A DNA stretch of 64,000 bases. It comes from Gammaproteobacteria bacterium (GTDB lineage Bacteria; Pseudomonadota; Gammaproteobacteria; Steroidobacterales; JABDLF01). Within the stretch, counting starts at the first letter, position 1, and each line of letters begins with the position of its first letter. The notes beneath the pieces are model-generated. The model did no database searches, was not told the origin of the DNA, and was given only the letters and a program-made list of their open reading frames with translations. Location: positions 9,911 through 73,910 of the forward strand of contig JBFIQI010000001.1 in the NCBI GenBank assembly GCA_041609715.1, written 5' to 3'. Of this stretch, positions 6,587 to 61,411 are shown in pieces. The position numbers and the translations under genes are program-made.

Positions 6587-7144
6587 TCAGGCGGACTGGC
6601 GCTGCAACCGCCCTGCCACTGCTTCTCGCTTGTCCTTGCCCGCCAGTGCACCAATCAGCACCAGGGCAAAATCCATGGCCGTGCCCGGACCACGTGAGGT
6701 GATTACTTTACCATCGCTAACCACCGCCGCCTCTTCGTAAGTGAGCCCCGCCAGCACCTCGTCAGCCAGGGCGCCCGGAAAGCTTGTGGCGCGGCGCCCT
6801 CGCAGCAGACCTGCTGCGGCCAGGGCCCGGGGCGCGGCGCATATCGCTGCCGTGAAGCGCCCGCTGGCAGCCATGTCCTGCAACAGCTTGCGCAAACGTG
6901 AATCAGCGGCCAGGTGGTCGGAACCCGGCAGACCCCCGGGCAATGCCACCATGTCGAACGCTTCCCCAAGGGCCGCTTCCAGGGTGGTGTCGGGGGTAAT
7001 GGTAATGTCGTGGGAACCGCGCACCGGTCCATCCTCGAGACCGGCAACCACGACCTCGATGCCGGCCCGGCGCAGCAGATCGATTATGGTAACGGCCTCT
7101 AGTTCTTCGAAGCCCGGGGCGAGTGGGACAAGGACGCGTGCCAT
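6587..7144 (-). CDS. DJ-1/PfpI (YajL/ThiJ-like) family protein
   Basis: N-terminal RVLVPLAPGFEELEAV and the nucleophile-elbow motif AAICAAP. Confidence 0.8.
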   Translation of the reverse strand: MARVLVPLAPGFEELEAVTIIDLLRRAGIEVVVAGLEDGPVRGSHDITITPDTTLEAALGEAFDMVALPGGLPGSDHLAADSRLRKLLQDMAASGRFTAAICAAPRALAAAGLLRGRRATSFPGALADEVLAGLTYEEAAVVSDGKVITSRGPGTAMDFALVLIGALAGKDKREAVAGRLQRQSA

Positions 7145-20162: not shown

Positions 20163-21137
20163 TCAGTCGGCGTCGATTTCGAGGTCTTTGATTTTGCGCG
20201 TCAGCGTATTGCGGCCCCAGCCCAGGAGTCGCGCCGCTTCCTGGCGCTGGCCGCCGCTCTTGTCGAGGGCAGCCCGAATCATGACCCGCTCCAGCTCCGG
20301 CACCGCGATATCCAGGATACCCACCTGCCCCTCGTCCAGCGCCCGGCGCGCCCACTTGTCCAGGGCGCCCGACCAGCCGTCGCTGCGTTTTTGCGGTTTG
20401 CTCCACAGATCGTCGGGTAAATCATCGACATCAATGAGACGACCGTCGGTGAATGCCGTGGTGCGTCGGCACACGCTCTCCAGCTGTGGCAGGTTGCCGG
20501 GCCAGTCCAGTTCCACCAGCTTCTGAACCGCCGCTTCAGTCATGCTTTTTGCCATGATACTGAGTTCCTTGGCCTCCAGCGCCAGGTAATGTTTGATGAG
20601 GCCCGGGATATCGCTGCGACGGTGTCGCAGAGGTGGCAGGATCATCCGGTTGGCGGACAGCGCCTCCAGCAGGCGCTGATTGAAGAGCCCGGCGCTGGCG
20701 CGGGTTTTCAGGTCCTGGGTGGTGGCCGCCATGATGCGCGCGCCGGTCTTCACCGGCTTGTTGTGGCCGACGGGATAGAACTCGCCCTCTTGAAGCACGC
20801 GCAAAAGCTTGGCTTGTAAAGCCGGGATCAAGACGCCGATTTCGTCAAAATAAACGGTCCCGGCATTGGCGCGCATGAACGCTGCACTTTCGCCAAACAG
20901 CAGTCCCTCGATCTCGGCCGGCGCTGTCTCGCTCACATCCGCCACCACGAAAGCGCGCAGCGTCCCGCCAGCGTGCCGGTGCAGGGCCCGCGCAGTTTCT
21001 TCTTTGCCAGTGCCCTGCTCGCCCACCAGCAGGATGGGTGTGCGGCCGCCCGCCAGCTGTTCGAAAGACTCGCGGATTCTCACGACTGGCGGGCTGCTGC
21101 CCAGCAATTCAGGAATATTGACGGCGCGGCTCAGCAC
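20163..21137 (-). CDS. NtrC-derived sigma-54-activator-like protein lacking the receiver domain and the GAFTGA loop
   Basis: 324 aa. AAA+ core with Walker A GEQGTGKE and Walker B YFDEIG. The C-terminus QEAARLLGWGRNTLTRKIKDL is nearly identical to the NtrC HTH. No REC domain; GAFTGA region shortened to LFGESAAFMRANAG. GTG start. Confidence 0.75.
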   Translation of the reverse strand: MLSRAVNIPELLGSSPPVVRIRESFEQLAGGRTPILLVGEQGTGKEETARALHRHAGGTLRAFVVADVSETAPAEIEGLLFGESAAFMRANAGTVYFDEIGVLIPALQAKLLRVLQEGEFYPVGHNKPVKTGARIMAATTQDLKTRASAGLFNQRLLEALSANRMILPPLRHRRSDIPGLIKHYLALEAKELSIMAKSMTEAAVQKLVELDWPGNLPQLESVCRRTTAFTDGRLIDVDDLPDDLWSKPQKRSDGWSGALDKWARRALDEGQVGILDIAVPELERVMIRAALDKSGGQRQEAARLLGWGRNTLTRKIKDLEIDAD

Positions 21138-21167: not shown

Positions 21168-21707
21168 CTAGTTGCGTACCCGGTTAAGAAGGTTGGTCTG
21201 GTGTACGAAAAACGTAACGGTTTCGCTGGCAGCCACCTGGCTGCCCTGTTCGTCCACCACTTCAGCTCGCAGATTGTGCTCACCGCGATATACATCCGTC
21301 AGGGTATGCCTGAGGCCCTGCGACGGCCAGCTGGAGATGAGCTGCCCGTCGTAATACACCCGAATGCTGTGGGTCCGCTGTAAACCCGGCACCAGGCTGA
21401 GGCTTACCGGCAGCTGGCCGCCGATGTTCCGGAAAGTTTCCTGCTCGGCGGGCCTCACTATGGTCAAACTCTGATAAATCCCCGCAGCTTCGGCTTCCCC
21501 CGGGGAGGCCGCCGCAGGTGCCCCGCTGCTCGGACGCACGCCTGGCCTCGCAGAATATGTTTGTGCGCCCCGAATCGTGATTTCCTCGGCATTTTCCCGA
21601 GGTCGATCGGAATAGTGCACGACACCGTTTTCGTCCACCCAGCGATAGGTTCCCGCCAAAGCCGGCAGGCACAGGCAAATTAACAATAATCCGCTGAGTA
21701 CTTTCAT
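21168..21707 (-). CDS. DUF4124 domain protein (secreted)
   Basis: Signal peptide MKVLSGLLLICLCLPALAG followed by YRWVDENGVVHYSDRP (DUF4124 signature). Confidence 0.65.
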   Translation of the reverse strand: MKVLSGLLLICLCLPALAGTYRWVDENGVVHYSDRPRENAEEITIRGAQTYSARPGVRPSSGAPAAASPGEAEAAGIYQSLTIVRPAEQETFRNIGGQLPVSLSLVPGLQRTHSIRVYYDGQLISSWPSQGLRHTLTDVYRGEHNLRAEVVDEQGSQVAASETVTFFVHQTNLLNRVRN

Positions 21708-21755
21708 GGCTACAGAATAAGGGCTGCATGGCCAACTCACCAAATATTGAGACCG

Positions 21756-21787
21756 GCGCGGCGCCGCACAATTCCGCGCGGCGCCGC
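21756..21787 (-). terminator. GC-rich hairpin downstream of glnA (possible terminator, weak U-tract)
   Basis: Two copies of GCGCGGCGCCGC (21756-21767 and 21776-21787), each containing the self-complementary core GCGGCGCCGC. They can pair across an 8-10 nt loop 15 nt after the glnA stop. The downstream U-run is poor. Confidence 0.4.
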
Positions 21788-21801
21788 CTGGCCCGGCTTT
21801 T

Positions 21802-23214
21802 TCAGAGGCTGTAGTACATGTCGAACTCCACCGGATGGGTGGTCATGCGCAACCGGGTGACATCTTCGCTTTTCAGGGCGATGAAGGCGTCAATGGCATC
21901 GTCGCTGAAGACTCCGCCGGCCTTGAGGAATTCGCGATCCGCGTCCAGGGCATCCAGCGCCTCCTCCAGCGAGTAACAAACTTCGGGAATATCGCTGGAT
22001 TCTTCCGGCGGCAGATCGTAAAGATCCTTGTCCATGGGATCGCCTGGATGAATTTTGTTGCGTATCCCGTCCAGTCCCGCCATCAACAGGGCTGTAAACG
22101 CGAAATACGGGTTGCAGGTCGAGTCCGGGAAGCGCACCTCGATCCGGCGTGCCTTGGGGTTGGCAATGAAAGGTATACGAATCGACGCCGAACGATTACG
22201 GGCCGAATAGGCAAGTTTCACCGGCGCCTCAAAGCCCGGCACCAGTCGCTTGTAACTGTTGGTGCGTGAATTGGTGTAGGCGTTCAGGGCGCGCGCATGT
22301 TTGATGATGCCGCCAATATAGAACAGCGCCGTTTCCGACAGGCCGCCGTAGCTGTCGCCGGTGAACAGGTTGTTACCATCTTTGGCCAGCGACTGATGCA
22401 CGTGCATGCCGTTGCCGTTATCGCCCACCAATGGTTTGGGCATGAAGGTGGCCGTTTTGCCATAGCCATGCGCAACATTCATAACCACGTATTTCAGAAT
22501 CTGCACTTCGTCCGCTTTGCGCACCAGCGAATTGAAGCCCACGCCGATTTCGCACTGTCCTGCTGTGGCCACCTCATGGTGATGCACCTCTGTTTTCAGG
22601 CCCATTTCTTCCAGCGCCACGCACATGGCGGAGCGAATGTCATGCAGGGAGTCAACCGGGGGCACCGGAAAGTATCCGCCCTTGACTCCGGGGCGATGCC
22701 CGAAGTTGCCGTCCTGATAGACCTTCTCGGAATTCCAGCCGGCTTCGGAGGAATCGATCTTGTAATGGGCGCCGCTCATCTCGCTGCCCCAGCGCACATC
22801 ATCAAACACGAAGAATTCGTTTTCCGGGCCAAAGAAAGCCTGGTCGGCGATGCCGGTGGACTTAAGGTATTCCTCGGCGCGCTTGGCAACAGAGCGGGGA
22901 TCGCGTTCATAGCCCTGCATGGTGGTGGGCTCAATGACATCGCAACGCAATACCAGGGTGCTGTCCTCGCTGAACACATCGATAACTGCGCTCTCGGGCT
23001 CCGGCATCAGGATCATGTCCGATTCGTTGATGCCCTTCCAGCCGGAGATCGAGGAACCGTCGAACATCTTGCCGTTCTCGAAAAAATCGTCGTCCACCAC
23101 GCTGCTGGGAATGGTCACGTGTTGTTCCTTACCGCGGGTATCGGTAAAGCGCAGGTCCACAAAGGACACCTCTTTTTCTTTCAGTAATTTGAAAACGTCT
23201 GACGAGCTCATCAA
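21802..23214 (-). CDS. glnA: Glutamine synthetase type I
   Basis: 470 aa with [24 protein letters not shown], and the adenylylation-site context [10 protein letters not shown]. Confidence 0.95.
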
Positions 23215-23287
23215 TGGTTCCTCCGGAGCATGGGTTAAATTGTCTTGTTGCGGCCGCCATGCGGGCCACGCGCTTGACCTCGACTAG

Positions 23288-23303
23288 TGCATGATTCGCC
23301 CCA
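23288..23303 (-). promoter_or_regulatory. Candidate sigma-54 (-24/-12) promoter of glnA
   Basis: The minus strand reads TGGGGC-GAATC-ATGCA, with GG and GC at the consensus spacing of TGGCAC-N5-TTGCA, about 75 nt upstream of the glnA ATG. Confidence 0.45.
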
Positions 23304-23376: not shown

Positions 23377-23393
23377 TGCACCACTATGGGGCG
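23377..23393. promoter_or_regulatory. Candidate NtrC-type enhancer site 1
   Basis: TGCACC-ACTAT-GGGGCG versus consensus TGCACC-N5-GGTGCA. The left half is perfect; the right half matches 3 of 6. Confidence 0.4.
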
Positions 23394-23406: not shown

Positions 23407-23423
23407 TGCCCCCAAATGGTGCA
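23407..23423. promoter_or_regulatory. Candidate NtrC-type enhancer site 2
   Basis: TGCCCC-CAAAT-GGTGCA versus TGCACC-N5-GGTGCA (11 of 12 specified positions), about 105-135 nt upstream of the candidate -24/-12 element. Confidence 0.5.
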
Positions 23424-27072: not shown

Positions 27073-27824
27073 TGCCCCCCACGAGCACCAACAGGCTCGT
27101 TGTCTTTCTGCGCTCGTCGCTGTTTATGCTGCTGGCGGTGGTGTCGGTCCTGGCCCATGCCAGCGCGCTGGTGTTGTTGTTCTGGCTGCCCCATGCCAGC
27201 GCCTACCGCATCGTGTTGTCATTCGGCAAACAGTTCCTGTGGCTGCTGAAACATGTGGTCGGGCTTGATTACGTGGTGCACGGGACCGAAAACATCCCCG
27301 CCGAAAACACCGTGGTCTATCTCAAGCATGAGTCGGTATGGGAGACGATTGCCGAACTCATGCTGTTTCCGCGCCAGTGCTGGGTATTGAAACATGAGCT
27401 TATGTGGGTGCCTTTTATCGGCTGGGCGCTGCTCAAGCTAAAACCCATTGCCATCGATCGCAAAGCCCGCGGCACGGCATTGGAGCAGGTGGTGCGCCAG
27501 GGCCGGGAACGGTTGCGCGAAGGCCTGTGGATAATGATATTTCCCGAGGGCACCCGGGTGGCGCCGGGAACCACCCGGCGTTACGGGCTGAGCGGTGCGG
27601 TGCTGGCTCGTGAGGCCGGGAAGAAAATTCTGCCGGTGGCCCACAACGCGGGCGATTTCTGGCCGCGCCGGAGTTTCATGAAGTATCCCGGTACCGTCCA
27701 GGTTTTTATTGGCCCCCCCATAGAAACATATGGTCGGTCGCCGGGGGCGATCAACCGCGAAGCCCAGGAGTGGATCGAGGGGCGCCTGGCCTTGTTGCAC
27801 AGCCGCCCCGGTGCGAGCGCCTGA
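27072..27824 (+). CDS. Lysophospholipid (1-acyl-sn-glycerol-3-phosphate) acyltransferase family protein
   Basis: N-terminal TM, an HESVWET (HX4E/D-type) box and an FPEGTR box. The ATG at 27072 overlaps the gmhB stop (TGATG). Same position as the acyltransferase next to gyrB in Pseudomonas. Confidence 0.75.
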   Translation: MPPTSTNRLVVFLRSSLFMLLAVVSVLAHASALVLLFWLPHASAYRIVLSFGKQFLWLLKHVVGLDYVVHGTENIPAENTVVYLKHESVWETIAELMLFPRQCWVLKHELMWVPFIGWALLKLKPIAIDRKARGTALEQVVRQGRERLREGLWIMIFPEGTRVAPGTTRRYGLSGAVLAREAGKKILPVAHNAGDFWPRRSFMKYPGTVQVFIGPPIETYGRSPGAINREAQEWIEGRLALLHSRPGASA

Positions 27825-45286: not shown

Positions 45287-47212
45287 ATGCGAGATTCAGC
45301 CCGATTTGACGTTATCGTCATCGGTGGCGGCCATGCCGGCACCGAGGCTGCGCTGGCGGCTGCCCGGCTGGGTGCCCGGACGCTATTGCTTACGCAAAAT
45401 ATCGAGACCATCGGGCAAATGAGCTGCAACCCTGCCATTGGCGGCATCGGCAAGGGCCACCTGGTACGCGAAATCGATGCGCTGGGCGGCATCATGGCCC
45501 GGGCGGCTGATGCCGCGGGCATCCAGTTTCGCACCCTCAACGCGCGCAAAGGCGCGGCCGTGCGCGCCACCCGGGCTCAGGCAGACCGCTCGCTTTATCG
45601 CAGCGCGGTGCGACGCCTGGTGGAAGCCCAGCCGGGACTCAGCCTGTTCCAGGGGGCGGCGGACGATCTCGTCATCGAGGGCACCAGGCTGCGGGGCGTC
45701 AAGACCTCCGGGGGCCTGGTATTCCAGGCGCCCGCCGTGGTCCTGACCGTGGGGACGTTCCTGGGCGGGCGCATCCATGTCGGCGAAGAAAATTCACCGG
45801 GAGGCCGCGCCGGCGACCCGCCTGCCAACCGGCTCGCACGCCGAATGCGGGAACTGCCGTTTCGCGTCCGTCGACTGAAAACCGGCACGCCGCCGCGCAT
45901 CGACGGCCGCAGCGTTAACTTCAGCAAACTGGCAGAGCAGCCAGGCGATGATCCGCGGCCGGTGTTTTCTTTCGTGGGGCATCCGGGACAACATCCGCGC
46001 CAGGTGCCTTGTCATATCACCCATACCAACGAGCAAACCCACGAAATCATCCGTGCGGCCCTGCATCGTTCTCCCATGTATTCAGGCGCCATCGACGGCG
46101 TCGGACCGCGTTACTGTCCTTCCGTCGAAGACAAAGTAGTCCGTTTTGCCGACAAGATCTCGCACCAGATTTTCGTGGAGCCGGAAGGTCTTCACAGCCG
46201 CGAACTTTATCCCAATGGCATCTCCACCAGCTTGCCATTTGAAGTGCAGCTTGAGTTTGTGCGCAGCATCAGGGGTTTTGAAACAGCCCACATTACCCGC
46301 CCCGGCTACGCCATCGAATACGATTTCTTCGATCCCCGCGACCTGCGCTATTCGCTGGAGACGCGAGCCATCAGCGGGCTGTATTTCGCCGGCCAGATCA
46401 ATGGCACCACGGGTTACGAAGAAGCCGCAGCCCAGGGCTTGCTGGCCGGTACCAACGCGGCCCTCGCGGTCCAGGACAAAGCGCCCTGGTGGCCGCGCCG
46501 CGACGAGGCGTACCTGGGCGTCCTGATAGACGACCTGATATCCCGGGGAACCAGCGAGCCTTACCGGATGTTCACCAGCCGCGCCGAATACCGCCTGAGT
46601 TTGCGAGAGGACAACGCGGACCTGCGGCTGACACCGGTGGGTCGCCAACTCGGCTTGGTAGACGAACACCGCTGGCGGATATTTGCGGCGCGTCGCGATG
46701 CCGTGTCGGCGGAAACGCAGCGCCTCGCCAGTCTTGTGGTGCGGCCCAAAGACGTGCCGGCGGACCTTGCCGGCGCCGTGTTTGGTGGCGGGCTTTCCCG
46801 GGAAAGCAGTGCCCTGGAGCTGCTCAAGCGCCCCGGTGTCGACTACGCGAGTGTTGCGAGTATTCCCCGGGTGGGGCCCTTGATCCCTCCCGAAGGCATC
46901 GAGGCGCCGCTGCTGGAAACGGTGTGTCGCTCCGTCGAACGCCAGGTGGAAATCGAAGCGCGTTACGCGGGTTATATAGATCGCCAGCGCGAAGAAATTG
47001 ATCGCAATCGTCGCAACGAAGACATGCTGCTCCCGCCCGACATCGATTACGAAACCGTGCGCGGCCTCTCCAGCGAGGTTTGCCAGAAACTGGATGAGCG
47101 TCGCCCGGAAACCCTGGGGCAGGCTGCGCGCATTCCCGGCATTACACCGGCGGCGATTTCCTTGCTGCTGGTGCACCTGAAAAAACGCCAGCCGCGACGC
47201 AGAGCATCCTGA
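45287..47212 (+). CDS. mnmG: tRNA uridine 5-carboxymethylaminomethyl modification enzyme MnmG (GidA)
   Basis: [63 protein letters not shown]. Confidence 0.95.
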
Positions 47213-47235: not shown

Positions 47236-48843
47236 TTGCTTGTCTGCATGGTGCAGCTGGCCGCTTGCGGGAAGAACCCACAGCCGCCCGCCAGCGCAGG
47301 CCCGCAAGCCGGCACTGCCGGCGAGGGCAAGGTGTTTCGCCGCGGGAATGGTGGCGACCCTGACTCGCTGGATCCGCATCGCTCCGAGGGCACTGGCTCC
47401 GCAGAGATCCTGCGCGACCTGTTCGAGGGCCTGGTGGGCGAAACGGTAAGCGCCGAGCTGCGCCCCGCAGGCGCGCAGCGCTGGGACATCAGCAATGATG
47501 GGCTGACTTATACCTTCTACCTGCATCGCGACTCGCGCTGGTCCAACGGCGACCCGGTGGTGGCAGAGGACTTCGCGTTCGGTCTGCGCCGCAGCGTCAC
47601 GCCGGCCACGGCCTCGTCCTATTCCCAGCTCCTCAAGCCCATCGAAAACGCGGCTGCAGTCATTGCCGGCGAATTGCCGCCCAGCGCCCTGGGGGTTGCG
47701 GCCCTGGACGACCATACCCTGCGGATCCGGCTGGCCAGTCCGACGCCGTATTTTCTTGGGCTGCTCACGCACGCATCCGCCTATCCGGTGCACCGCGCCA
47801 GCCTGGAGGCGCATGGCGACAAGTTCACGCGCCCGGGCAATCTGGTAAGCAACGGGCCGTACAGGCTGGACGAGTTCGTCGCACAGTCCCACGTAAAGAT
47901 TGTCAAGAACCCCCACTATCGGGAGCGCCAGCACGTCGCCATCGATACCGTGTATTACTACAACACGGAAGATCGCAATGCCGAGCTCAAGCGTTATCGT
48001 GCAGACGAGCTGGACTACACCTTTGTCATTCCTACCACGCAGCTTGGCTGGATACGGGAAAACCTCGGGGATGAGCTGAAATCCGCCCCTTACCTAAGCG
48101 TCTATTACTACATTCTGAATCTCTCCAAACCGCCATTCGAAGACCAGCCGAAGCTGCGCCAGGCGCTCAGCATGGCCATCGACCGCAAGGTGCTGGTGGA
48201 AAAGGTGACCGGTACCCGCGAGGTTCCCGCTTATGGCTTCGTTCCGCCGGGCGTGGCGGGGCATGAATCGCAAAGCTACGCATGGTCCGGGCTGGAGGAT
48301 TCCCAGCGTATTGCCATGGCACAGGCGCTGTACACCGAGTCCGGGTACTCACGCGACCAGCCGCTCAGAACCGAGATTCGCTACAACACCTCAGAGAATC
48401 ACAAGAAGATTGCGGTGGCCATCGCCGCCATGTGGAAACAGGTGCTCGGGGTGGAGGCAACGCTGGTTAACGAAGAGTGGAAAGTGTTCCTGCAAACCCG
48501 CAAGAATCGCGAGGCCTGGGAGGTCTTTCGTTTCAGCTGGGTTGGTGATTACAACGACGCCAACACCTTTTTGGAAATCATGCATTCAGAGCATGGCCAG
48601 AATGACGCGGCCTACGCAAACCCCCGCTACGATCGGCTGCTGGACGCGGCGGCCGTGGAAACCGACATGCGGGCGCGCAGCGCCCTGCTGGGCGAAGCGG
48701 AGCGCGTCCTGCTGGGGGATTATCCCGTGATCCCGCTTTATTTCCCGGTCAGCAAACACCTGGTCAAACCCTGGGTAAAGGGTTACGTGCCCAATGTGAT
48801 GAACCGCGACCAGTCACGGTACTACCGCATAGAAAAGAACTGA
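47236..48843 (+). CDS. oppA: Peptide ABC transporter substrate-binding lipoprotein (OppA-like, SBP family 5)
   Basis: Lipobox LAAC; GGDPDSLDPHRSEGTGSAEILRDLFEGLV resembles OppA. The start is uncertain: the listed TTG leaves only 10 residues before the lipobox Cys. Confidence 0.8.
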   Translation: MLVCMVQLAACGKNPQPPASAGPQAGTAGEGKVFRRGNGGDPDSLDPHRSEGTGSAEILRDLFEGLVGETVSAELRPAGAQRWDISNDGLTYTFYLHRDSRWSNGDPVVAEDFAFGLRRSVTPATASSYSQLLKPIENAAAVIAGELPPSALGVAALDDHTLRIRLASPTPYFLGLLTHASAYPVHRASLEAHGDKFTRPGNLVSNGPYRLDEFVAQSHVKIVKNPHYRERQHVAIDTVYYYNTEDRNAELKRYRADELDYTFVIPTTQLGWIRENLGDELKSAPYLSVYYYILNLSKPPFEDQPKLRQALSMAIDRKVLVEKVTGTREVPAYGFVPPGVAGHESQSYAWSGLEDSQRIAMAQALYTESGYSRDQPLRTEIRYNTSENHKKIAVAIAAMWKQVLGVEATLVNEEWKVFLQTRKNREAWEVFRFSWVGDYNDANTFLEIMHSEHGQNDAAYANPRYDRLLDAAAVETDMRARSALLGEAERVLLGDYPVIPLYFPVSKHLVKPWVKGYVPNVMNRDQSRYYRIEKN

Positions 48844-48906
48844 CCCTTTCCGGGCGGGGTGCGGTGTTATGATCGCGCACGCCATGATTACTGGAAATAC
48901 GCGGCC

Positions 48907-49836
48907 GTGCTGAGCTATTCCTTGCGCAGGGCGCTGGGCGCAATTCCCACCTTGTTGCTGCTGTTGGCGCTGACCTTCGTACTGGTACGCGTTGCACCAG
49001 GCGGGCCCTTCGACACCGAACGCAACCTGCCGCCGGAAATCGAAGCCAACCTGGAGCGCGCCTATCATCTCCACGAATCGCTGCCGCGGCAGTTTTTGCG
49101 CTACCTCGGAAATCTGCTGCAGGGAGATTTCGGTCCGTCGTTTCAGTACCGGGATTACACGGTCGGCGAACTCATCGCTGCCGGTTTTCCCGTGTCACTT
49201 AGCCTGGGCGCCAGCGCCATGCTGCTGGCCCTGTTGCTGGGCGTCTTCATCGGTGTAATTGCCGCGCTTCGGCAAAACAGTCTGGCAGATCACGGGGCCA
49301 TGGCCCTGGCGATGACCGGCATATCGGTGCCCAACTTTGTCATGGCGCCGCTATTGATTCTGGTCTTCGGCGTGTACCTGGGATGGCTGCCTGCCGGCGG
49401 GCTTGGCGGCAGCAGCCTGCACCTGACCAACATGATATTGCCGGTTGTCACTCTGGCTTTGCCGCAAATTGCATATATCGCCCGCCTGACCCGCGGCAGC
49501 ATGATCGAAGTGCTGCACAGCGACTTCATACGGACGGCCCGCGCCAAGGGTCTGCCACTGCGTCAACTGGTATTGCGCCACGCCCTGAAGCCGGCACTGC
49601 TGCCGGTGGTTTCCTACCTCGGACCAGCGACGGCAGGCATCATCACCGGATCGGTGGTGATTGAGCAGATTTTCGGGTTGCCCGGCCTGGGCCGTTATTT
49701 TGTGCAGGGAGCGCTCAATCGCGACTACACACTCGTCATGGGCGTGGTGGTGTTTTTTGGTGTGCTGATCATTCTCTTCAACTTGCTGGTAGATCTCGTG
49801 TATGCGGTGCTGGATCCGCGGGTGCGGCACAAATGA
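48907..49836 (+). CDS. oppB: Peptide ABC transporter permease (OppB-like)
   Basis: LSYSLRRALGAIPTLLLLLALTFVLVRVAPGGPF is the typical N-terminus, followed by the FIRTARAKGL EAA loop. The GTG at 48907 is preferred to the listed 48859. Confidence 0.85.
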   Translation: MLSYSLRRALGAIPTLLLLLALTFVLVRVAPGGPFDTERNLPPEIEANLERAYHLHESLPRQFLRYLGNLLQGDFGPSFQYRDYTVGELIAAGFPVSLSLGASAMLLALLLGVFIGVIAALRQNSLADHGAMALAMTGISVPNFVMAPLLILVFGVYLGWLPAGGLGGSSLHLTNMILPVVTLALPQIAYIARLTRGSMIEVLHSDFIRTARAKGLPLRQLVLRHALKPALLPVVSYLGPATAGIITGSVVIEQIFGLPGLGRYFVQGALNRDYTLVMGVVVFFGVLIILFNLLVDLVYAVLDPRVRHK

Positions 49837-50723
49837 ACGCCGCCCCGGTGCTGGCAGCATCGTCTGAACCGCTTACGGGCCGCAGCCTGTGGCAGGATGC
49901 CCGGCGGCGCCTGCTGCAAAACCGGGCCGCCATGATCAGCATCACCCTGCTCGCGCTTATGAGTCTGGTGGTGGTGGTGGGTCCGCTATTGAGCCCGCAT
50001 GCCTACGATTATGCTGATTTTGGTCACATCTCCGCGCCGCCCTCGGTCTCGGACTGGCACTTGTTCGGCACCGATGCCGTGGGCCGCGATCTGTTCGTTC
50101 GTACCCTTTACGGCGGACGGGTGTCGCTGATGGTGGGTCTGGTGAGTACTCTGGTAAGCCTCCTGATCGGCGTGTCCTGGGGCGCAACGGCCGGCTATCT
50201 CGGGGGCCGCATCGACGGCCTGATGATGCGCGTCGTGGATATCCTGTACGCCCTGCCTTTCATGTTTTTCGTGATCCTGCTGATGGTGGTATTTGGTCGC
50301 AACCTGTTGCTCATTTTCGTTGCCATCGGCGCGATCACCTGGCTGGACATGGCGCGCATCGTCCGCGGGCAAACTCTGAGTCTCAAGCATCGCGAGTTTG
50401 TGGAGGCCGCGCAATCTTTCGGAGCGTCCAGCGCCAGCATCATCCGGCGACATATCGTGCCCAATCTCCTGGGCATTGTTATGGTGTACGTGACGCTCAC
50501 CATTCCCCGGGTAATCCTGGTGGAATCTTTTCTGAGCTTCCTGGGGCTTGGTGTGCAGGAGCCGCTCACCTCGTGGGGCGCACTGGTCAACGAGGGCACC
50601 CAGGAGCTCGAAAGCGCCCCTTGGATGCTCATTTTCCCGGCGGGCTTTCTGGCCACCACGCTGTTCTGCTTCAACTTTATCGGCGATGGTCTGCGAGATG
50701 CGCTGGATCCGCGCGACCGCTAG
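49833..50723 (+). CDS. oppC: Peptide ABC transporter permease (OppC-like)
   Basis: HLFGTDAVGRDLFVRTLYGGRVSL and the EFVEAAQSFGAS EAA loop. ATGA overlap with oppB. Confidence 0.85.
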   Translation: MNAAPVLAASSEPLTGRSLWQDARRRLLQNRAAMISITLLALMSLVVVVGPLLSPHAYDYADFGHISAPPSVSDWHLFGTDAVGRDLFVRTLYGGRVSLMVGLVSTLVSLLIGVSWGATAGYLGGRIDGLMMRVVDILYALPFMFFVILLMVVFGRNLLLIFVAIGAITWLDMARIVRGQTLSLKHREFVEAAQSFGASSASIIRRHIVPNLLGIVMVYVTLTIPRVILVESFLSFLGLGVQEPLTSWGALVNEGTQELESAPWMLIFPAGFLATTLFCFNFIGDGLRDALDPRDR

Positions 50724-50725
50724 CA

Positions 50726-51688
50726 ATGTTGCTTGAAGTAGAAAATCTGCAGGTTCGTTTTGACACGCCGGACGGCGCGGTGCATGCGGTCAACGGGCTG
50801 GATTTTAGTCTGGACAAAGGCCGCACTCTCGGCATCGTCGGCGAGTCCGGTTCGGGTAAAAGTCAAAGCGTGTTGGCCATGATGGGGCTGCTGGGGGCCA
50901 GCGGACGGGCGCAGGGCAGGGTGCGTTTCGATGGCGAGCAGATTCTGAATTTGCCGCCCGGGAGATTGAATCGCCTGCGCGGTCGACGCATTGCCATGGT
51001 TTTCCAGGACCCGATGACCAGCCTCAACCCCTATTTGACGGTCGAAACACAAATGTTGGAAGTCCTGCGGCTGCATCAAGGTATGGACCGGAACACGGCG
51101 CGGCGTCGCTGTGTGGAGATGCTGAGTGCGGTGCACATTGCCGATCCAAAGACGCGTCTCAGGCGCTATCCCCATGAGCTTTCCGGCGGCATGCGGCAGC
51201 GCGTGATGATTGCGATGGCGCTCCTGTGTGACCCGGATCTGCTGATCGCCGATGAGCCGACCACCGCGCTGGATGTGACCGTGCAAGCGCAGATCCTGGC
51301 TTTGTTACGGGACTTGCAGGCGCAATTCGGCACCGCGATTATCCTGATCACCCACGACCTGGGCGTCGTTGCGGGCAGCTGTGACGACGTGCTGGTGATG
51401 TACGGTGGCCAGGTCATGGAAAGCGGGGCCGCAGAGGACATTTTCTATGCTGCGCGGCATCCTTATACCCAGGCGCTGTTGCGCTCCATGCCAAGCCTGG
51501 AGCACGAGCCGGGCAAAACTTTGTCGGCCATACCCGGGAACCCGCCCGATTTACGCAAGCTGCCGGCAGGCTGCCCCTTTTATGCGCGCTGCCAACACCG
51601 CTTTGCAGTATGTGCAGACAAGCGGCCCGCAGTGCACCGGCTGGCCGGTCGGCATGCCAGCGCCTGCCACCTGGAAAGCGCATCATGA
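50726..51688 (+). CDS. oppD: Peptide ABC transporter ATP-binding protein (OppD-like)
   Basis: [28 protein letters not shown], and the C-terminal oligopeptide-ABC Cys motif. ATG at 50726, 3 nt after the oppC stop. Confidence 0.88.
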
Positions 51689-52674
51689 GCGCTCCCGTGC
51701 TCACGGCGCTGGACCTGAGCGTTGATTTCGAGGTGCCGGGGGTCGGCCTGATGAGTCGGCCGCGGCGCCTGCGCGCGGTTGACAGCGTCAGTTTCGAGCT
51801 GGCTGCGGGTGAGACCCTGGGGATTGTGGGTGAGTCGGGGTGCGGCAAGTCGACACTGGCTCGCGCTCTGCTGGGATTGGTGCCGGCCAGTGCCGGCGTC
51901 GTAAGTTTTCTGTCGCACCCGCTTAACCATGCTGACAGCCGGACCCTGCGCCGTCGTCGCCGGGAGTTGCAGTTGATGTTTCAGGATCCGCTCGCCTCGC
52001 TGAACCCCCGTATGAGCATCGGCAAAATCATCGCCGAGCCGTTGCAGGTGCATTTTCCGGATATGTTGCGCAAAGACCGCGAAACCCGCGTGCGCAAAGC
52101 CATGGAACAGGTCGGTTTATCCCGGGAGTTTCTGAACCGCTATCCCCATGAGTTTTCAGGCGGTCAATGCCAGCGTATCGGCATCGCCAGGGCCCTGGTT
52201 CTTGAGCCCCGCGTGATTATCTGCGACGAACCGGTCAGCGCGCTGGATGTTTCGGTGCGCGCGCAGATTATCAACTTGCTGTTACGTTTGCGGGAGGAAC
52301 TGGGCTTATCGCTGGTGTTCATCGCCCACGACCTCGGGGTTGTGCGACACATCAGCGATCGGGTACTGGTGATGTACCTCGGGCGGGTGGTGGAGGAGGC
52401 TCCGGCTGCTGCATTGTTTGCGCGGCCCGCGCATCCGTATACCCGTGCCCTGATTGCTGCAGTACCGATCGCCGACCCGCGGCGCCAGCGCCAGCGTCTG
52501 CCCGAAGCGCTGGCTGGCGAGATGCCCTCGCCCCTGCACCCCCCGTCCGGGTGCAGTTTCAGAACGCGCTGTCCCTGGGCGGCGGACAAGTGTGCCGCCA
52601 GTCGACCGGGTCTCAGGCCCTTCGATGACAGTGAGGCTGCCTGCCACCGACTGGAAGATATTCGCAACGCCTGA
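51685..52674 (+). CDS. oppF: Peptide ABC transporter ATP-binding protein (OppF-like)
   Basis: GESGCGKS, FSGGQCQRI, IICDEPVSALD. ATGA overlap with oppD. Confidence 0.88.
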   Translation: MSAPVLTALDLSVDFEVPGVGLMSRPRRLRAVDSVSFELAAGETLGIVGESGCGKSTLARALLGLVPASAGVVSFLSHPLNHADSRTLRRRRRELQLMFQDPLASLNPRMSIGKIIAEPLQVHFPDMLRKDRETRVRKAMEQVGLSREFLNRYPHEFSGGQCQRIGIARALVLEPRVIICDEPVSALDVSVRAQIINLLLRLREELGLSLVFIAHDLGVVRHISDRVLVMYLGRVVEEAPAAALFARPAHPYTRALIAAVPIADPRRQRQRLPEALAGEMPSPLHPPSGCSFRTRCPWAADKCAASRPGLRPFDDSEAACHRLEDIRNA

Positions 52675-57374: not shown

Positions 57375-57419
57375 GTCTGGCGCAATTGGCCAGGGTCGCG
57401 GTGGGGCCGTCGGTGCTTG

Positions 57420-57773
57420 TCAGGCGCCGTCCTGCATGAGTCGGGATATCCTGAATTTCAGGGCCTTGATTTCCTGCTTGCTGGTTTCGGGATCTTTTTC
57501 CGCGTCGCGCAATTCCATCAGCTTGGCAGGCAGGGTCGATTCGCGCAGCAACTCGCGGGCAGCCTTCCAGGCCTGCTGTTCTTCATTGGGCAGGGCCAGA
57601 ATCGTATCGTCGCCGCGTACCACGGCTGCCTTATGTTTACAGAAGCGCCCCAGGGCGCCAGCCGGGCAATCACAAAACACGGAGACCTTGCTGCCCTGGC
57701 CCAGGACCTCGATGCGATAGGGTCGCTTGCGCGAACTCGCTTTTGCGCTGACTTCTACTGTTTGTTCCAGCAT
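57420..57773 (-). CDS. Small SWIM zinc-finger protein
   Basis: 117 aa with [19 protein letters not shown], matching the CxCx(n)CxH SWIM signature, and a helical, charged C-terminus. More protein-like than the overlapping plus-strand extension of prpB. Confidence 0.55.
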
Positions 57774-57902
57774 GCTTTCATTGTAGCCGCGCGGGCACGG
57801 CCAACAACAGGCGCCACCGAAAAAAAAGCGCCGGCTGGGTTAAAATGCCGCCCCCGATCCAACCGCAGTGTGGTGCAGCTGGCGGTATCCAGGAGTTCCT
57901 TA

Positions 57903-58787
57903 ATGACCAACAAGCAATCCGCCGGCCACGGCTTTCGCAGAGCCCTTGATGCCGAACGGCCCCTGCAGTTGATGGGCACGGTTAATGCCTACACCGCACT
58001 CATGGCCAGGCGAGTCGGCTATCGAGCAATCTATCTTTCCGGGGGTGGCGTTGCCGCCAATTCTCTGGGTATGCCGGATCTCGGCATCAGCACCATGGAG
58101 GATGTGCTCACCGACATCCGGCGCATTACCGATGCCTGCGATCTGCCGCTGCTGGTGGATGCCGATGTGGGCTGGGGCGGAGCATTTAATATAGCCCGGA
58201 CGGTGAATCGTTTTATCAAGGCGGGCGCCGCCGGGATGCACATTGAAGACCAGGTGGCCAACAAACGTTGTGGCCACCGTCCCGGCAAAGCGATCGTAAG
58301 TAAGTCGGAGATGGTGGACCGCATCAAAGCTGCCGTAGATGCGCGGGGTGACGACGGCTTCGTCATCATGGCGCGTACCGACGCGCTGGCGGTGGAAGGT
58401 ATGGACAGCGCCGTGGAGCGGGCGGTGGCCTGTGTGGAAGCGGGCGCTGACATGGTGTTTCCCGAGGCCATGCGCACTCTTGAGGATTACGCCACTTTCA
58501 AGCAGGCGGTAGGCGTGCCAGTCCTCGCCAACATAACGGAGTTTGGCCATACGCCGCTGTTTTCCCGTGACCAGCTCGCGGGTGCCGGCGTCGACATCAT
58601 CCTTTACTGCTGCAGCGCTTATCGAGCCATGAATAAAGCGGCACTGACGGTATATGAGGCGATACGGAAGCAGGGAACCCAGCAGGGCGTGCTGGATATG
58701 ATGCAAACGCGTGAAGAGCTTTATGATTTCCTCGGATACCACGATTACGAAGCCAAGCTCGATGAGTTGTATGCAAGTGATGACTGA
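57903..58787 (+). CDS. prpB: 2-methylisocitrate lyase
   Basis: [24 protein letters not shown] and KRCGHRPGK (the ICL/PEP-mutase signature). The true ATG is at 57903; the listed ORF is extended by 162 codons. Confidence 0.9.
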
Positions 58788-58804
58788 ACAATGGAGCCAC
58801 GGAG

Positions 58805-59929
58805 ATGAGTGACAAAAACAAGGCAGGCGGGTTGCGCGGCGTGGCGGCCGGCACCACCAGTATCTGTACGGTTGGTGCCAGCGGCGATGGGCTGCATTAT
58901 CGAGGCTACGACGTCGCCGACATGGCGGTGGACGCCGGATTCGAAGAAGTTGCCTACTTGCTGCTGTATGGTGACCTGCCCAGCCAGAAACAGCTGCTGG
59001 ATTACCGCCAACGGCTCATGGCATTCCGCGGCCTGCCGCACGAGCTGCGCGAGGTCCTCGAGCGCATTCCCGCCAGCGCACACCCCATGGAAGTGCTGCG
59101 TACCGGCTGCTCGATGCTGGGCAACCTGGAACCGGAAGGGGATTTTGCCAACCAGGACCGGGTGGCCGACCGGCTGTTGGCAGTTATGCCTTCCATCATG
59201 GCGTATTGGTACCGTTATGCGCACGACGGCAAGCGCATCGATACCGAAACCGACGACGACAGCATGGCCGGGCATATCCTGCGCATGATCACAGGCCGGG
59301 AGCCGCCGGCCGACCACCAGCGCTACATGGATGTTTCGCTGATTCTTTACGCCGAGCACGAATTCAACGCCTCCACGTTCACGGCACGGGTTATTGCCGC
59401 GACACTGTCCGATATGTATTCGGCGGTGACTGGCGCAATCGGCGCATTGCGCGGTCCCCTGCATGGTGGCGCCAACGAGGCCGCCATGGAGCTGGTGGAA
59501 AAATTCAGGACTCGCGAGGAAGCCGTCGAGGGCGTCACTGCCATGCTGGCCCGCAAGGAAAAAATCATGGGGTTCGGGCACGCGGTCTACAAGCAAAAGG
59601 ACCCGCGCAACGCCATCAACAAGCAGTGGTCCAGGCAGCTTTCCACTGGCGCCGGGGATGCTTATCTTTACGACGTGTCGGACGCCATCGAGCAAGTGAT
59701 GGCCGACGAAAAAGGGTTGTTTGCAAATGCCGACTTTTTCAGCGCCTCGGCGTATCACTTCATGGGCGTTCCCACACCGCTGTTCACACCGCTGTTCGTC
59801 TGTTCCCGCACCAGCGGCTGGTGCGCCCATATCAAAGAGCAGCGGGCTCACAACAAGCTGATTCGGCCGGGGGCGGAATATACCGGCCCGGCTCCGCGAC
59901 CCTTCGTCAAGCTCGCGGACCGCGGCTGA
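58805..59929 (+). CDS. prpC: 2-methylcitrate synthase
   Basis: Citrate-synthase motifs LYAEHEFNASTF, GPLHGGANEA, GFGHAVYK. Located between prpB and prpD. Confidence 0.9.
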   Translation: MSDKNKAGGLRGVAAGTTSICTVGASGDGLHYRGYDVADMAVDAGFEEVAYLLLYGDLPSQKQLLDYRQRLMAFRGLPHELREVLERIPASAHPMEVLRTGCSMLGNLEPEGDFANQDRVADRLLAVMPSIMAYWYRYAHDGKRIDTETDDDSMAGHILRMITGREPPADHQRYMDVSLILYAEHEFNASTFTARVIAATLSDMYSAVTGAIGALRGPLHGGANEAAMELVEKFRTREEAVEGVTAMLARKEKIMGFGHAVYKQKDPRNAINKQWSRQLSTGAGDAYLYDVSDAIEQVMADEKGLFANADFFSASAYHFMGVPTPLFTPLFVCSRTSGWCAHIKEQRAHNKLIRPGAEYTGPAPRPFVKLADRG

Positions 59930-59962
59930 GTTAACCACTGACAATCAAGCAAGGAGCTACCC

Positions 59963-61411
59963 ATGTCCGGTGCTGACATTCGTATTGCCAATCGTCCTGA
60001 TCCCGACCAGGAGCTTGCCGCCATTGCCGATTATGTTGGCGGCTTCGGTGCTGCCGACAAGCTTGCGCGCAGCACCGCCCGCTACTGCCTCATGGACTCC
60101 TTGGCCTGCATGTTCCAGGCGCTGGATTATCCGGCCTGCACCCGGTTGCTGGGGCCCGTCGTGCCGGGGGCGACCCTGCCCGGGGGGGCGCGCGTACCCG
60201 GCACATCCTTCGAGCTTGATCCGGTCAATGCGGCTTTCAATATTGGTGCGCTGGTGCGCTGGCTCGACTTCAATGACACCTGGCTGGCTGCCGAGTGGGG
60301 CCACCCCTCGGACAATCTGGGCGCAATCCTCGCGGTAGCCGACTACCTGAGTCGCAGCAATGTCGTTGCCGGCCAGGACTCCCTGACCATGGGCGAAGTA
60401 TTGACGGCGATGATCCAGGCTCACGAAATCCAGGGCGTCATCGCGCTTGAAAACAGCTTTAACCGCGTGGGCCTGGACCATGTGCTGCTGGTGCGTATCG
60501 CATCAACCGCAGTGGCAACCCGGATGCTGGGCGGTGATCGCGCTACCGTGATCAACGCGGTTTCAAATGCTTTCCTGGACGGCGGCGCATTGCGGACCTA
60601 TCGACATGCGCCAAACACCGGTTCGCGCAAGAGTTGGGCGGCAGGTGACGCCACCAGCCGCGCCGTGCGGCTGGCCCTCATGGCAATGACCGGCGAGATG
60701 GGCTATCCGTCGGCTCTGAGCGCAAAGACCTGGGGGTTTTCTGATGTGCTGTTCAAGGGCAGGCCGCTGGCATTCACCCAGGGTTATGGCAGCTACGTAA
60801 TGGAGAATGTGCTGTTCAAGATTTCCTACCCTGCCGAGTTTCATGCACAAACCGCAGTCGAGGCGGCCATGACCCTGCATGCAGAGGTCAAGCACCGCAT
60901 CGACGATATAGCAAAGGTTGTTATCGAAACCCAGGAGCCCGGGGTGCGCATTATTGACAAGATCGGGCCGCTGGATAATCCGGCCGATCGCGATCATTGC
61001 ATTCAATACATGGTTGCGGTGCCGTTGATTTTCGGCCGCCTCACGGCCGCCGACTATGAAGATGAGGTGGCCGGCGATCCGCGTATCGACGCGCTGCGGG
61101 AAAAAATGGAAGTCACGGAAAACAAGACGTTCACGGAAGAATATTTCGCCCCTGACAAGCGCTACATTGGCAACGCGATTGTGGTGCACTTCAAGGACGG
61201 CAGCAGTACCCGACGCGTACAGGTGGATTACCCCATTGGTCATCGCAAGCGTCGTGATGAGGGCATCCCGGTGCTGATCCGGAAGTTCCAGCGCAGCATC
61301 GCCGGTAAACTTTCTGACAGCCAGATCGAGTCCCTGGAGGAGTTGTTCCGGGACCAGCAGCGCCTGGAGCGTTTTCCGGTCACCGAGTTCATGTCTTTCC
61401 TGGTGCGCTGA
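59963..61411 (+). CDS. prpD: 2-methylcitrate dehydratase (MmgE/PrpD family)
   Basis: 482 aa; LMDSLACMFQAL, HPSDNLGAILAVADY, ISYPAEFHAQTAVEAA, DYPIGHRKRR. Confidence 0.9.
   Translation: MSGADIRIANRPDPDQELAAIADYVGGFGAADKLARSTARYCLMDSLACMFQALDYPACTRLLGPVVPGATLPGGARVPGTSFELDPVNAAFNIGALVRWLDFNDTWLAAEWGHPSDNLGAILAVADYLSRSNVVAGQDSLTMGEVLTAMIQAHEIQGVIALENSFNRVGLDHVLLVRIASTAVATRMLGGDRATVINAVSNAFLDGGALRTYRHAPNTGSRKSWAAGDATSRAVRLALMAMTGEMGYPSALSAKTWGFSDVLFKGRPLAFTQGYGSYVMENVLFKISYPAEFHAQTAVEAAMTLHAEVKHRIDDIAKVVIETQEPGVRIIDKIGPLDNPADRDHCIQYMVAVPLIFGRLTAADYEDEVAGDPRIDALREKMEVTENKTFTEEYFAPDKRYIGNAIVVHFKDGSSTRRVQVDYPIGHRKRRDEGIPVLIRKFQRSIAGKLSDSQIESLEELFRDQQRLERFPVTEFMSFLVR

Follow-up and report, generated by a model that had tools for sequence, protein, structure and literature searches.

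The window analysed here, a 64-kb stretch of contig JBFIQI010000001.1 from a gammaproteobacterial genome, carries on its reverse strand the glutamine synthetase gene glnA, a gene for a signal-peptide protein of the DUF4124 family and, separated from the stop codon of the latter by 30 nt only, an open reading frame (ORF) for a shortened relative of the nitrogen regulator NtrC, designated NtrC' (gene ntrC') in this work. An earlier note on this DNA, made from the letters alone, had described the protein as an NtrC-derived activator stripped of its receiver (REC) domain and GAFTGA loop, with no ntrB beside it, and had left three readings: a decaying gene, a sigma-54-independent regulator or repressor, or an anti-activator competing for NtrC sites. 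The second of these was found to be the best supported, and we give about an even chance to the proposal that NtrC' is a phosphorylation- and sigma-54-independent DNA-binding repressor acting at two sites around a sigma-70 glnA promoter. The features of the protein and its neighbours are listed below, with positions of the window; clade members are the 15 clusters of close homologues described in the next section.

20163..21137, (-): ntrC' coding sequence, 324 aa, GTG start; AAA+ core, lid and NtrC-type DNA-binding domain, without REC
21000..21023, (-): Walker A GEQGTGKE (residues 39-46); K45 in 14 of 15 clade members, E46 in 15 of 15
20883..20888, (-): junction of the 12-residue L1/GAFTGA deletion (S84/A85), from alignments; identical gap in 15 of 15 clade members
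20841..20846, (-): Walker B D98-E99; D in 14 of 15 clade members, E in 15 of 15
20661..20681, (-): former arginine-finger segment FNQRLLEAL; N153 = PspF R162, A159 = PspF R168 / NtrC1 R299
20487..20489, (-): sensor-II position, Pro217 instead of Arg, invariant across the clade alignment
20181..20255, (-): helix-turn-helix (HTH, residues 295-319); 96.5% mean pairwise identity in the clade; matches 1ntc, E 7.6e-16
21168..21707, (-): DUF4124 gene, directly upstream of ntrC'; in intact relatives ntrB comes next
21802..23211, (-): glnA (glutamine synthetase type I), adenylylation motif retained

The profile searches that had been proposed as a check assigned residues 12-161 to Sigma54_activat (4e-29), 171-251 to AAA_lid_14 and 279-318 to HTH_8 (1e-14), and Response_reg (PF00072) gave no match in the Pfam search of the protein. 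The AAA+ domain is preceded by 11 residues, close to the ten or so counted before. The top NCBIfam model was the NtrC equivalog TIGR01818, of which positions 132-463 of 463 only were covered, with 258.1 bits against a curated cutoff of 558.6 (PRK10923: 248.8 bits, cutoff 620), and the homology to full-length NtrC starts at about residue 131 of the latter. When the window was searched by tblastn with NtrB and REC of an intact relative, no remnant of either was detected (best E 0.39 and 2.8), and the missing REC domain and the missing ntrB were thus both confirmed.

Alignments to ZraR, NifA, CapR and full-length NtrCs placed a gap of exactly 12 residues, GAFTGA included, in the segment that contacts sigma-54, in agreement with the shortening by about 12 residues noticed earlier. 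The local sequence across the junction is LLFGES followed by AAFMRANAGTVYFDEIG, where intact proteins read ...HEKGAFTGA..., and no GAFTGA motif was found in any frame of the window. The counterpart of FREDLxHRL (FREDLFHRL in the earlier wording) was verified as FNQRLLEAL, with N153 at the position of PspF R162 and A159 at that of PspF R168, the latter being equivalent to NtrC1 R299, an arginine finger working in trans (PMC7175178). Within the clade the R162 equivalent is N, L, S or K and the R168 equivalent is A, E or L, with R in one member of the 15. A further loss, on which the earlier note was silent, concerns the sensor-II arginine of WPGNVRQL, replaced by Pro217 in NtrC' (WPGNLPQLE) and by Pro in all 15 clade members; moreover, Asp takes the place of the Asn partner in the 'glutamate switch' of NtrC'.

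The Walker A (GEQGTGKE) and Walker B (FDEIG) motifs are intact, as had been stated, and the NtrC-like C-terminal HTH quoted before was found, with a recognition helix, GWGRNTLTRK, that does not differ from that of NtrC. The structure 1ntc, matched by the HTH, is the NtrC DNA-binding domain. In the AlphaFold2 model, which is a confident one (pLDDT 88), the AAA+ fold is intact and the L1 hairpin is missing; the closest PDB neighbours of the model are NtrX 5m7p (best) and NtrC1 1ny6, and it superposes on the NtrC1 AAA+ domain with a root-mean-square deviation of 1.3 Å over 240 columns.

Regarded as an enhancer-binding protein (EBP), NtrC' has the Sigma54_activat domain and Walker A/B and lacks the GAFTGA loop, the arginine fingers and the sensor-II Arg. 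Regarded as an NtrC equivalog, it has the glnA-side position, the HTH and operator-type sites upstream of glnA, and lacks the score, REC and an adjacent NtrB. It shows the GAFTGA-less fold of the atypical EBPs without their N-terminal REC or sensory domain, and it does not belong to the PspF/HrpS type, its GAFTGA being deleted and its neighbours being DUF4124 (secreted) and pyrD. NtrC' would be unable to touch sigma-54 because the L1/GAFTGA loop is deleted, and the loss of both arginine fingers and of the sensor-II Arg almost certainly makes ATP hydrolysis impossible for it. Most likely it still binds NtrC operators, because the dimerisation/DNA-binding domain and the recognition helix are kept.

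Orthology, distribution and selection

Homologues of NtrC' were drawn from a search of 5.8 billion proteins. The clade comprises at least 15 clusters (P0001-P0015), 60-100% identical to the query and 323-329 aa long, all without REC, and the next matches beyond it are full-length NtrC/GlnG proteins at about 47% identity. The start ML[ST]R..., the 12-residue gap and the sensor-II Pro are common to all 15 members, and the conservation of the truncated form, suggested earlier as a check, thus extends to 15 clusters and six species. An exhaustive profile search of 1.84 billion representatives gave a single 50%-identity cluster of this kind, the score falling from 572 to 329 bits at the next match, and two metagenome scans at the Joint Genome Institute, with the invariant leader block and with the back-translated clade motif WPGNLPQLESVCR, gave zero matches; on these grounds the clade is narrow and rare. 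Its contigs all come from uncultured 'Gammaproteobacteria bacterium' metagenome-assembled genomes (MAGs); carriers of the gene include GCA_041607335.1, GCA_041576095.1, GCA_041577495.1, GCA_013003115.1, GCA_041617835.1, GCA_024643845.1 and the assemblies with contigs JBFGOQ010000002.1 and CAVWXZ010000011.1.

Six species-level contigs have the identical synteny: glyS-glyQ and glnA diverge, and glnA is followed by DUF4124, ntrC', convergent pyrD and a SpoU methylase gene. Outgroups on contigs L082, L087 and L088, with GlnA identities that in descending order are 84%, 83% and 76%, carry glnA-(DUF4124)-ntrB-ntrC at the same locus; glyQS stands divergent upstream of glnA also in L087 and L088, and L082 shares the full synteny of the window, with pyrD-SpoU-gpsA-secB on the other side. 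Since the nearest outgroups carry ntrB-ntrC at this very position, the gene is the positional orthologue of ntrC, and the description of the protein as NtrC-derived is fully supported. The identity of GlnA is 87-100% within the clade, with a gap down to 84% for the closest outgroup, and because the relatives below this gap have an intact glnA-(DUF4124)-ntrB-ntrC, it follows that ntrB and the REC-encoding 5' part of ntrC (about 130 codons; about 1.5 kb in total) were lost in one event on the clade stem. The identity of NtrC' to the nearest intact NtrC (43-50%) is below that of two distant intact NtrCs to each other (57-58%), which indicates that change sped up after the loss of ntrB and REC.

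The ratio of non-synonymous to synonymous change (dN/dS) within the clade was estimated by the Nei-Gojobori method, with dS saturated at 1.2-2.1; identities are those of the window to the other members at the amino-acid level.

ntrC': within-clade dN/dS 0.12-0.27; amino-acid identity 61-72%
glnA: within-clade dN/dS 0.03-0.06; amino-acid identity 87-92%
pyrD: within-clade dN/dS 0.03-0.09; amino-acid identity 84-87%

The ntrC' gene is faster-evolving than its neighbours, its non-synonymous rate being 3-4 times that of glnA and pyrD, yet it is clearly under purifying selection. Mean pairwise identity by region is 96.5% for the HTH, 90% for sensor II, 82% for Walker A and 56-60% for the former arginine-finger and L1 segments. 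As a separate observation, the glnA at L011:3930-5252 (Microflora Danica MAG CAVWXZ010000011.1) ends early and encodes 440 aa with an altered C-terminus, which is probably an assembly indel error.

DNA upstream of glnA and of ntrC'

The glyQ-glnA spacer was aligned from five, and then from six, clade species, and the alignment showed two frozen blocks amid otherwise scrambled DNA. The features of block 1, of block 2 and of the spacer between glnA and the DUF4124 gene are as follows:

23407..23423, (-): block 1, NtrC-type site 1, TGCACCATTTGGGGGCA (1 mismatch); overlaps the putative -35, centre at about -25 of P1
23397..23405, (-): block 1, extended -10 TGgTATCCT of the putative sigma-70 promoter P1
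23377..23393, (-): block 1, NtrC-type site 2, CGCCCCATAGTGGTGCA (2 mismatches); centre at about +6 of P1
23308..23323, (-): block 2, invariant AGGCGG-ccatt-CTGCC; GG-N10-GC in sigma-54 register, weak consensus match
23285..23303, (-): block 2, probable remnant of the ancestral sigma-54 promoter glnAp2 (TGGGGC-gaatc-ATGCA); -24 box variable, -12 part ATCATGCACTA invariant
21741..21788, (-): GC-rich hairpin and T-run after glnA, the hairpin showing compensatory changes between species; probable terminator or attenuator
21714..21742, (-): sigma-70-like putative promoter before DUF4124-ntrC', proposed from conservation

The two sites of block 1 resemble the NtrC operator consensus TGCACC-N5-GGTGCA, and their spacing is exactly 30 bp in every one of the six clade species. 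They are the sole intergenic NtrC-type matches with at most two mismatches in the window, the other five being intragenic, and neither extra NtrC sites nor copies of the invariant block were found elsewhere in the window beyond chance. The inner half-sites of the pair are degenerate compared with intact relatives. Between the two sites all 6 clade species have the element TGnTAT(C/T)CT, which none of the 3 outgroups has, and TTGCAC stands 16 nt upstream of the extended -10; if P1 is a promoter, its +1 would lie near 23390. In E. coli, NtrC has two strong sites with their centres at -140 and -108 relative to glnAp2 (PMC5159524). The glnAp1 promoter, which depends on sigma-70 and is blocked by NtrC, is located 115 bp further upstream than glnAp2 (PMC1865078). 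Relative to glnAp1 these sites work out at -25 and +7, and therefore the geometry of the sites around the putative P1 (-25 / +6) is the same as at E. coli glnAp1.

Block 2 (window 23323-23285, 38 bp, reverse strand) is almost invariant in the six clade species. Its second half aligns with the canonical sigma-54 promoter aTGGCAC-ggatc-ATGCA of L087, the closest outgroup, and its first half is where the promoters of L082 and L088, two more distant outgroups, align. The -24 box reads TGGGGC, TGCCGC, TGGCGC, AGATGC, TGACGC and TGGCGG in the six species, the essential GG being present in three of them amid invariant surroundings, and the ancestral glnAp2 is read by us as having decayed following the loss of activator function. 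No sigma-70 hexamer pair was found in block 2. An RNA element in the glnA leader was also considered and rejected, there being a chance Rfam match only and, in RNAalifold, a positive covariation term with no supported helices.

In the spacer upstream of DUF4124-ntrC' the putative promoter consists of a -35 TTGTGA (TGGTGA in the window), 17 nt and a -10 TATCCT (TATTCT in the window), the latter ending 6-7 nt ahead of the DUF4124 ATG. This suggests that the DUF4124-ntrC' transcript may be leaderless, with its promoter in a position analogous to E. coli glnLp.

A second lineage of REC-less NtrCs (P0171, from the search of representatives, with P0270 and P0271; 310-327 aa) groups with the NtrCs of Arenicella (45-51% identity) and is 32-35% identical to the clade of the window. 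These proteins likewise start at the AAA+ domain; 15 residues around GAFTGA are missing, with boundaries that differ from those of the window clade, sensor II has Leu, and both arginine fingers are kept. The genes stand directly after glnA, without ntrB or DUF4124:

L085:10001-10933 and L084:2806-3738: second-clade ntrC' genes (proteins P0171, P0270, P0271)
L085:9940-9956 and L084:2765-2781: predicted second-clade operator, perfect NtrC palindrome TATAATGCACCAATTTGGTGCA, in both available contigs

The glnA terminator is followed by a perfect TATAAT, the last base of which is the first of the palindrome, about 45 bp before the ntrC' start. This would be a textbook autorepression geometry, and we take it to resemble the arrangement of NtrC at E. 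coli glnLp. A REC-less, GAFTGA-less NtrC beside glnA has thus arisen twice independently, and this convergence argues that a REC-less, sigma-54-blind NtrC may be a stable functional state as an operator-binding repressor. The protein P0129 (L086:1026-2087; 353 aa, REC-less and NtrC-like, with GAFTGA and arginine fingers intact) was considered as an evolutionary intermediate and rejected, its gene on an unrelated metagenome contig adjoining kdpC and an IS110 fragment, not glnA; it may be a rearranged or truncated copy.

In the rest of the window neither rpoN nor a second EBP, an RpoN box, PII or other nitrogen genes were found by motif scan and by Pfam on about 45 ORFs. The matches to the sigma-54 consensus in the window were at or below chance (47 against 45.9 expected, 2 against 3.9 expected) and are uninformative on the use of rpoN. 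One of them, the one-mismatch sequence TGGCAGGGCGGTTGCA at 6603-6618 (-), lies 31 nt upstream of a 77-aa ORF (6572-6339) that is followed by an acyl-CoA-binding-protein-like ORF; the match may mean nothing, such matches being below chance in the window. The segment 27849-38190 is the chromosomal origin region, with gyrB, recF, dnaN and dnaA (-) and rnpA, yidC and mnmE (+), perfect DnaA boxes at 27526, 32717, 32752 and 34164 and the minimum of cumulative GC skew at 34-36 kb; mnmG lies at 45287-47212, and the glnA-ntrC' locus is about 10 kb from dnaA. A methylcitrate-cycle cluster at 57417-61411 encodes a PrpB-like protein of the phosphoenolpyruvate mutase/isocitrate lyase family, extended at its N-terminus by about 170 aa, together with PrpD and a PrpC-like citrate synthase, and an operon for an Opp/Dpp-type peptide ABC transporter occupies 47236-52674.

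Proposed function

According to the proposed mechanism, NtrC', without a REC domain, would no longer be phosphorylated and would sit on NtrC operators, possibly as an ATP-bound dimer of dimers; at both sites it would occlude the clade-specific extended -10 promoter P1 and repress it, a sigma-70 glnA promoter having presumably arisen between two NtrC sites. Only the 'repressor half' of NtrC would be preserved, as it operates in E. coli NtrC at glnAp1 and glnLp. With ntrC' located downstream of glnA, a negative feedback on the operon would result, and the nitrogen control of glutamine synthetase may be mainly post-translational, through adenylylation, which is possible because the GlnA adenylylation motif is kept. 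ATP binding without hydrolysis may stabilise the cooperative assembly, and this would account for the conserved Walker motifs and lid. This reading is favoured by the loss of the residues for coupling and hydrolysis with operator specificity kept, and by the conserved sites at repressor positions around a sigma-70-type element; moreover, NtrX, a GAFTGA-less relative of NtrC, is a reported repressor (PMC6158489). DNA binding, the action of P1 as a promoter, the sign of the regulation and the retained ATP binding we infer from sequence.

Several points weigh against such a repressor. A plain repressor has no obvious need for a 240-aa AAA+ domain with conserved Walker motifs. The near-invariant block 2, with GG-N10-GC in sigma-54 register, is left unexplained by the model, and so is the invariant ATCATGCACTA. 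P1 is a conserved motif only, the putative -35 of which matches at most 3 of 6 positions, and a sigma-70 scan gave nothing in the P1 region. Finally, the terminator and the separate promoter between glnA and DUF4124-ntrC' weaken the autoregulatory loop.

In a rival reading NtrC' is a sigma-70-dependent activator: from the same pair of upstream sites it would activate a promoter for housekeeping RNA polymerase, situated some 70-115 bp downstream within the conserved block, and for this it would need to bind ATP but not to hydrolyse it. The site pair is at an enhancer-like distance from the invariant block, glnA expression needs some promoter, Walker A/B are conserved, L1-deleted NtrCs at sigma-70 promoters are documented and the NtrC of R. 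capsulatus requires ATP binding, not hydrolysis (10.1101/2023.06.06.543975). However, no acceptable -35/-10 pair could be placed in the invariant block, whereas the extended -10 element on which the outer half-sites encroach, from repressor positions, is far better. The second clade has a single site, and this runs into the -10 itself, which is the geometry of a repressor. The characterised examples, moreover, all keep REC and need phosphorylation or a ligand, and NtrC' has no input domain; we therefore regard activation as unlikely, although as the alternative to be taken most seriously. The anti-activator proposed in the earlier note, kept here as a rival, would require rpoN and a full-length NtrBC elsewhere in the genome, with NtrC', produced from the glnA operon, competing for the enhancer sites, poisoning mixed AAA+ rings, or both, and so damping the sigma-54-dependent activation of glnA. 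Its recognition helix is identical to that of NtrC, the enhancer-like site pair is conserved, the invariant GG-N10-GC element and the invariant -12 region persist downstream, the AAA+ and lid regions competent for oligomerisation are conserved, and arginine fingers act in trans (PMC7175178), so that missing ones could poison neighbouring subunits. Set against this, the truncated locus is the canonical ntrBC locus itself, the 64 kb hold no other EBP, GAFTGA motif or RpoN box, and the inner half-sites are degenerate relative to intact relatives; the loss of the ancestral -24 GG upstream of glnA in three of six clade species also weakens the proposal, and we consider it improbable.

The remaining reading of the earlier note, a gene in decay or a remnant peculiar to one strain, is refuted. 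A slowly decaying pseudogene that gene calling still reports as an ORF would agree with the non-synonymous change 3-4 times faster than in glnA and pyrD and with the loss of several catalytic residues; but the ORF is intact, with equal length and start, in no fewer than 15 clusters, the identity of which goes down to 56%, in identical synteny in six species-level contigs, dN is far below dS (dN/dS 0.12-0.27, dS saturated), and the HTH, Walker A and sensor-II regions are 82-97% identical. The cognate DNA sites are conserved and the second lineage reached the same form convergently, and decay thus seems very improbable indeed. The remaining probability belongs to functions not considered, including whatever the invariant block 2 serves.

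NtrC' may also be conceived as a conserved pseudo-ATPase switch, deprived of phosphorylation input and catalysis but with its nucleotide pocket kept, in which ATP/ADP, or a metabolite or PII protein docking on the AAA+ domain, would be sensed and would directly set the occupancy of the glnA operator. We regard this as unlikely; if true, two-component nitrogen sensing would have been replaced by direct energy or metabolite sensing.

Comparison with known systems

In Proteobacteria the textbook circuit for nitrogen pairs NtrBC with sigma-54, and here it would have been cut down naturally to its DNA-binding, repressing half, long retained and twice independently. The locus may serve as a natural experiment on the functions of NtrC that survive without phosphorylation and sigma-54, on the rewiring of glnA from sigma-54 to sigma-70, and on the role of a catalytically dead AAA+ domain. 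The annotation 'sigma-54 interacting transcriptional regulator' is almost certainly wrong for NtrC' proteins, and regulon predictions for such MAGs should not presume NtrC-sigma-54 control of nitrogen assimilation.

The gammaproteobacterial NtrC, or NR-I (GlnG), occupies the same glnA-DUF4124-[ntrB]-ntrC-pyrD position and is 43-50% identical to NtrC' over residues ~131-468; the two share the recognition helix, NtrC-type palindromes upstream of glnA and a glnAp1-like geometry (-25 / +7). Unlike NR-I, NtrC' is without REC, NtrB, the 12-aa L1/GAFTGA segment, arginine fingers and the sensor-II Arg, it scores under half of the equivalog cutoff, and the defining activation of sigma-54 would be impossible for it. 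L1-deleted NtrCs acting at sigma-70 promoters have been described in Rhodobacterales and Caulobacter (10.1101/2023.06.06.543975). The NtrCs of Rhodobacter capsulatus and Caulobacter crescentus have, like NtrC', the GAFTGA loop deleted (an 8-residue L1 deletion in Caulobacter) and control glnA or glnBA, among other genes, through sigma-70 promoters, a role proposed here for NtrC'; in contrast to it they keep REC, NtrB and phosphorylation dependence, and the Caulobacter protein needs ATP binding and hydrolysis. Compared with these alphaproteobacterial deletions, that of NtrC' is of independent origin, in another class and with other boundaries.

Atypical EBPs without GAFTGA are well established, namely TyrR, PhhR, HupR, HsfA, NtrX and VpsR (PMC6158489). 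NtrX (Brucella abortus; PDB 5m7n/o/p) is like NtrC' a GAFTGA-less member of the NtrC family, is dimeric and is reported to repress its own promoter, but it has REC and the kinase NtrY, is specific to Alphaproteobacteria, is not linked to glnA and is 27-29% identical to NtrC'. VpsR, TyrR, PhhR, HupR and HsfA likewise combine the EBP AAA+ fold with altered ATPase residues and no functional GAFTGA, and act with sigma-70 RNA polymerase as activators or repressors; unlike NtrC' they keep an N-terminal sensory or REC module, and none derives from a glnA-linked ntrC. PspF and HrpR/HrpS consist, as NtrC' does, of the AAA+ core and the DNA-binding domain only, with no regulatory domain in cis, but they are true sigma-54 activators with intact GAFTGA and arginine fingers, controlled in trans by PspA or HrpV. 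PexR of Myxococcus was also considered as an analogue and was discarded as a canonical sigma-54 activator.

Fis is said to have been proposed by Morett and Bork in 1998 to derive from the C-terminal domain of NtrC. Fis and NtrC' have in common an NtrC-type HTH_8 module operating without sigma-54, and NtrC' might represent a halfway stage; in Fis, a global nucleoid protein, the AAA+ domain is gone altogether, whereas NtrC' keeps a conserved AAA+ domain and local predicted operators. Small HTH_8 proteins such as Fis have been proposed to evolve from EBPs, and NtrC' could plausibly be an intermediate that still exists today; if the pseudo-ATPase reading is true, its two origins would mark a repeatable route from an enhancer-binding motor to a plain repressor, as long postulated for Fis. 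Literature searches gave no description of a glnA-linked NtrC combining these losses. What appears to be new is thus the combination: a gammaproteobacterial glnA-linked ntrC orthologue without NtrB, REC, L1, arginine fingers and sensor II, which is under selection, has kept its predicted operators and has evolved twice.

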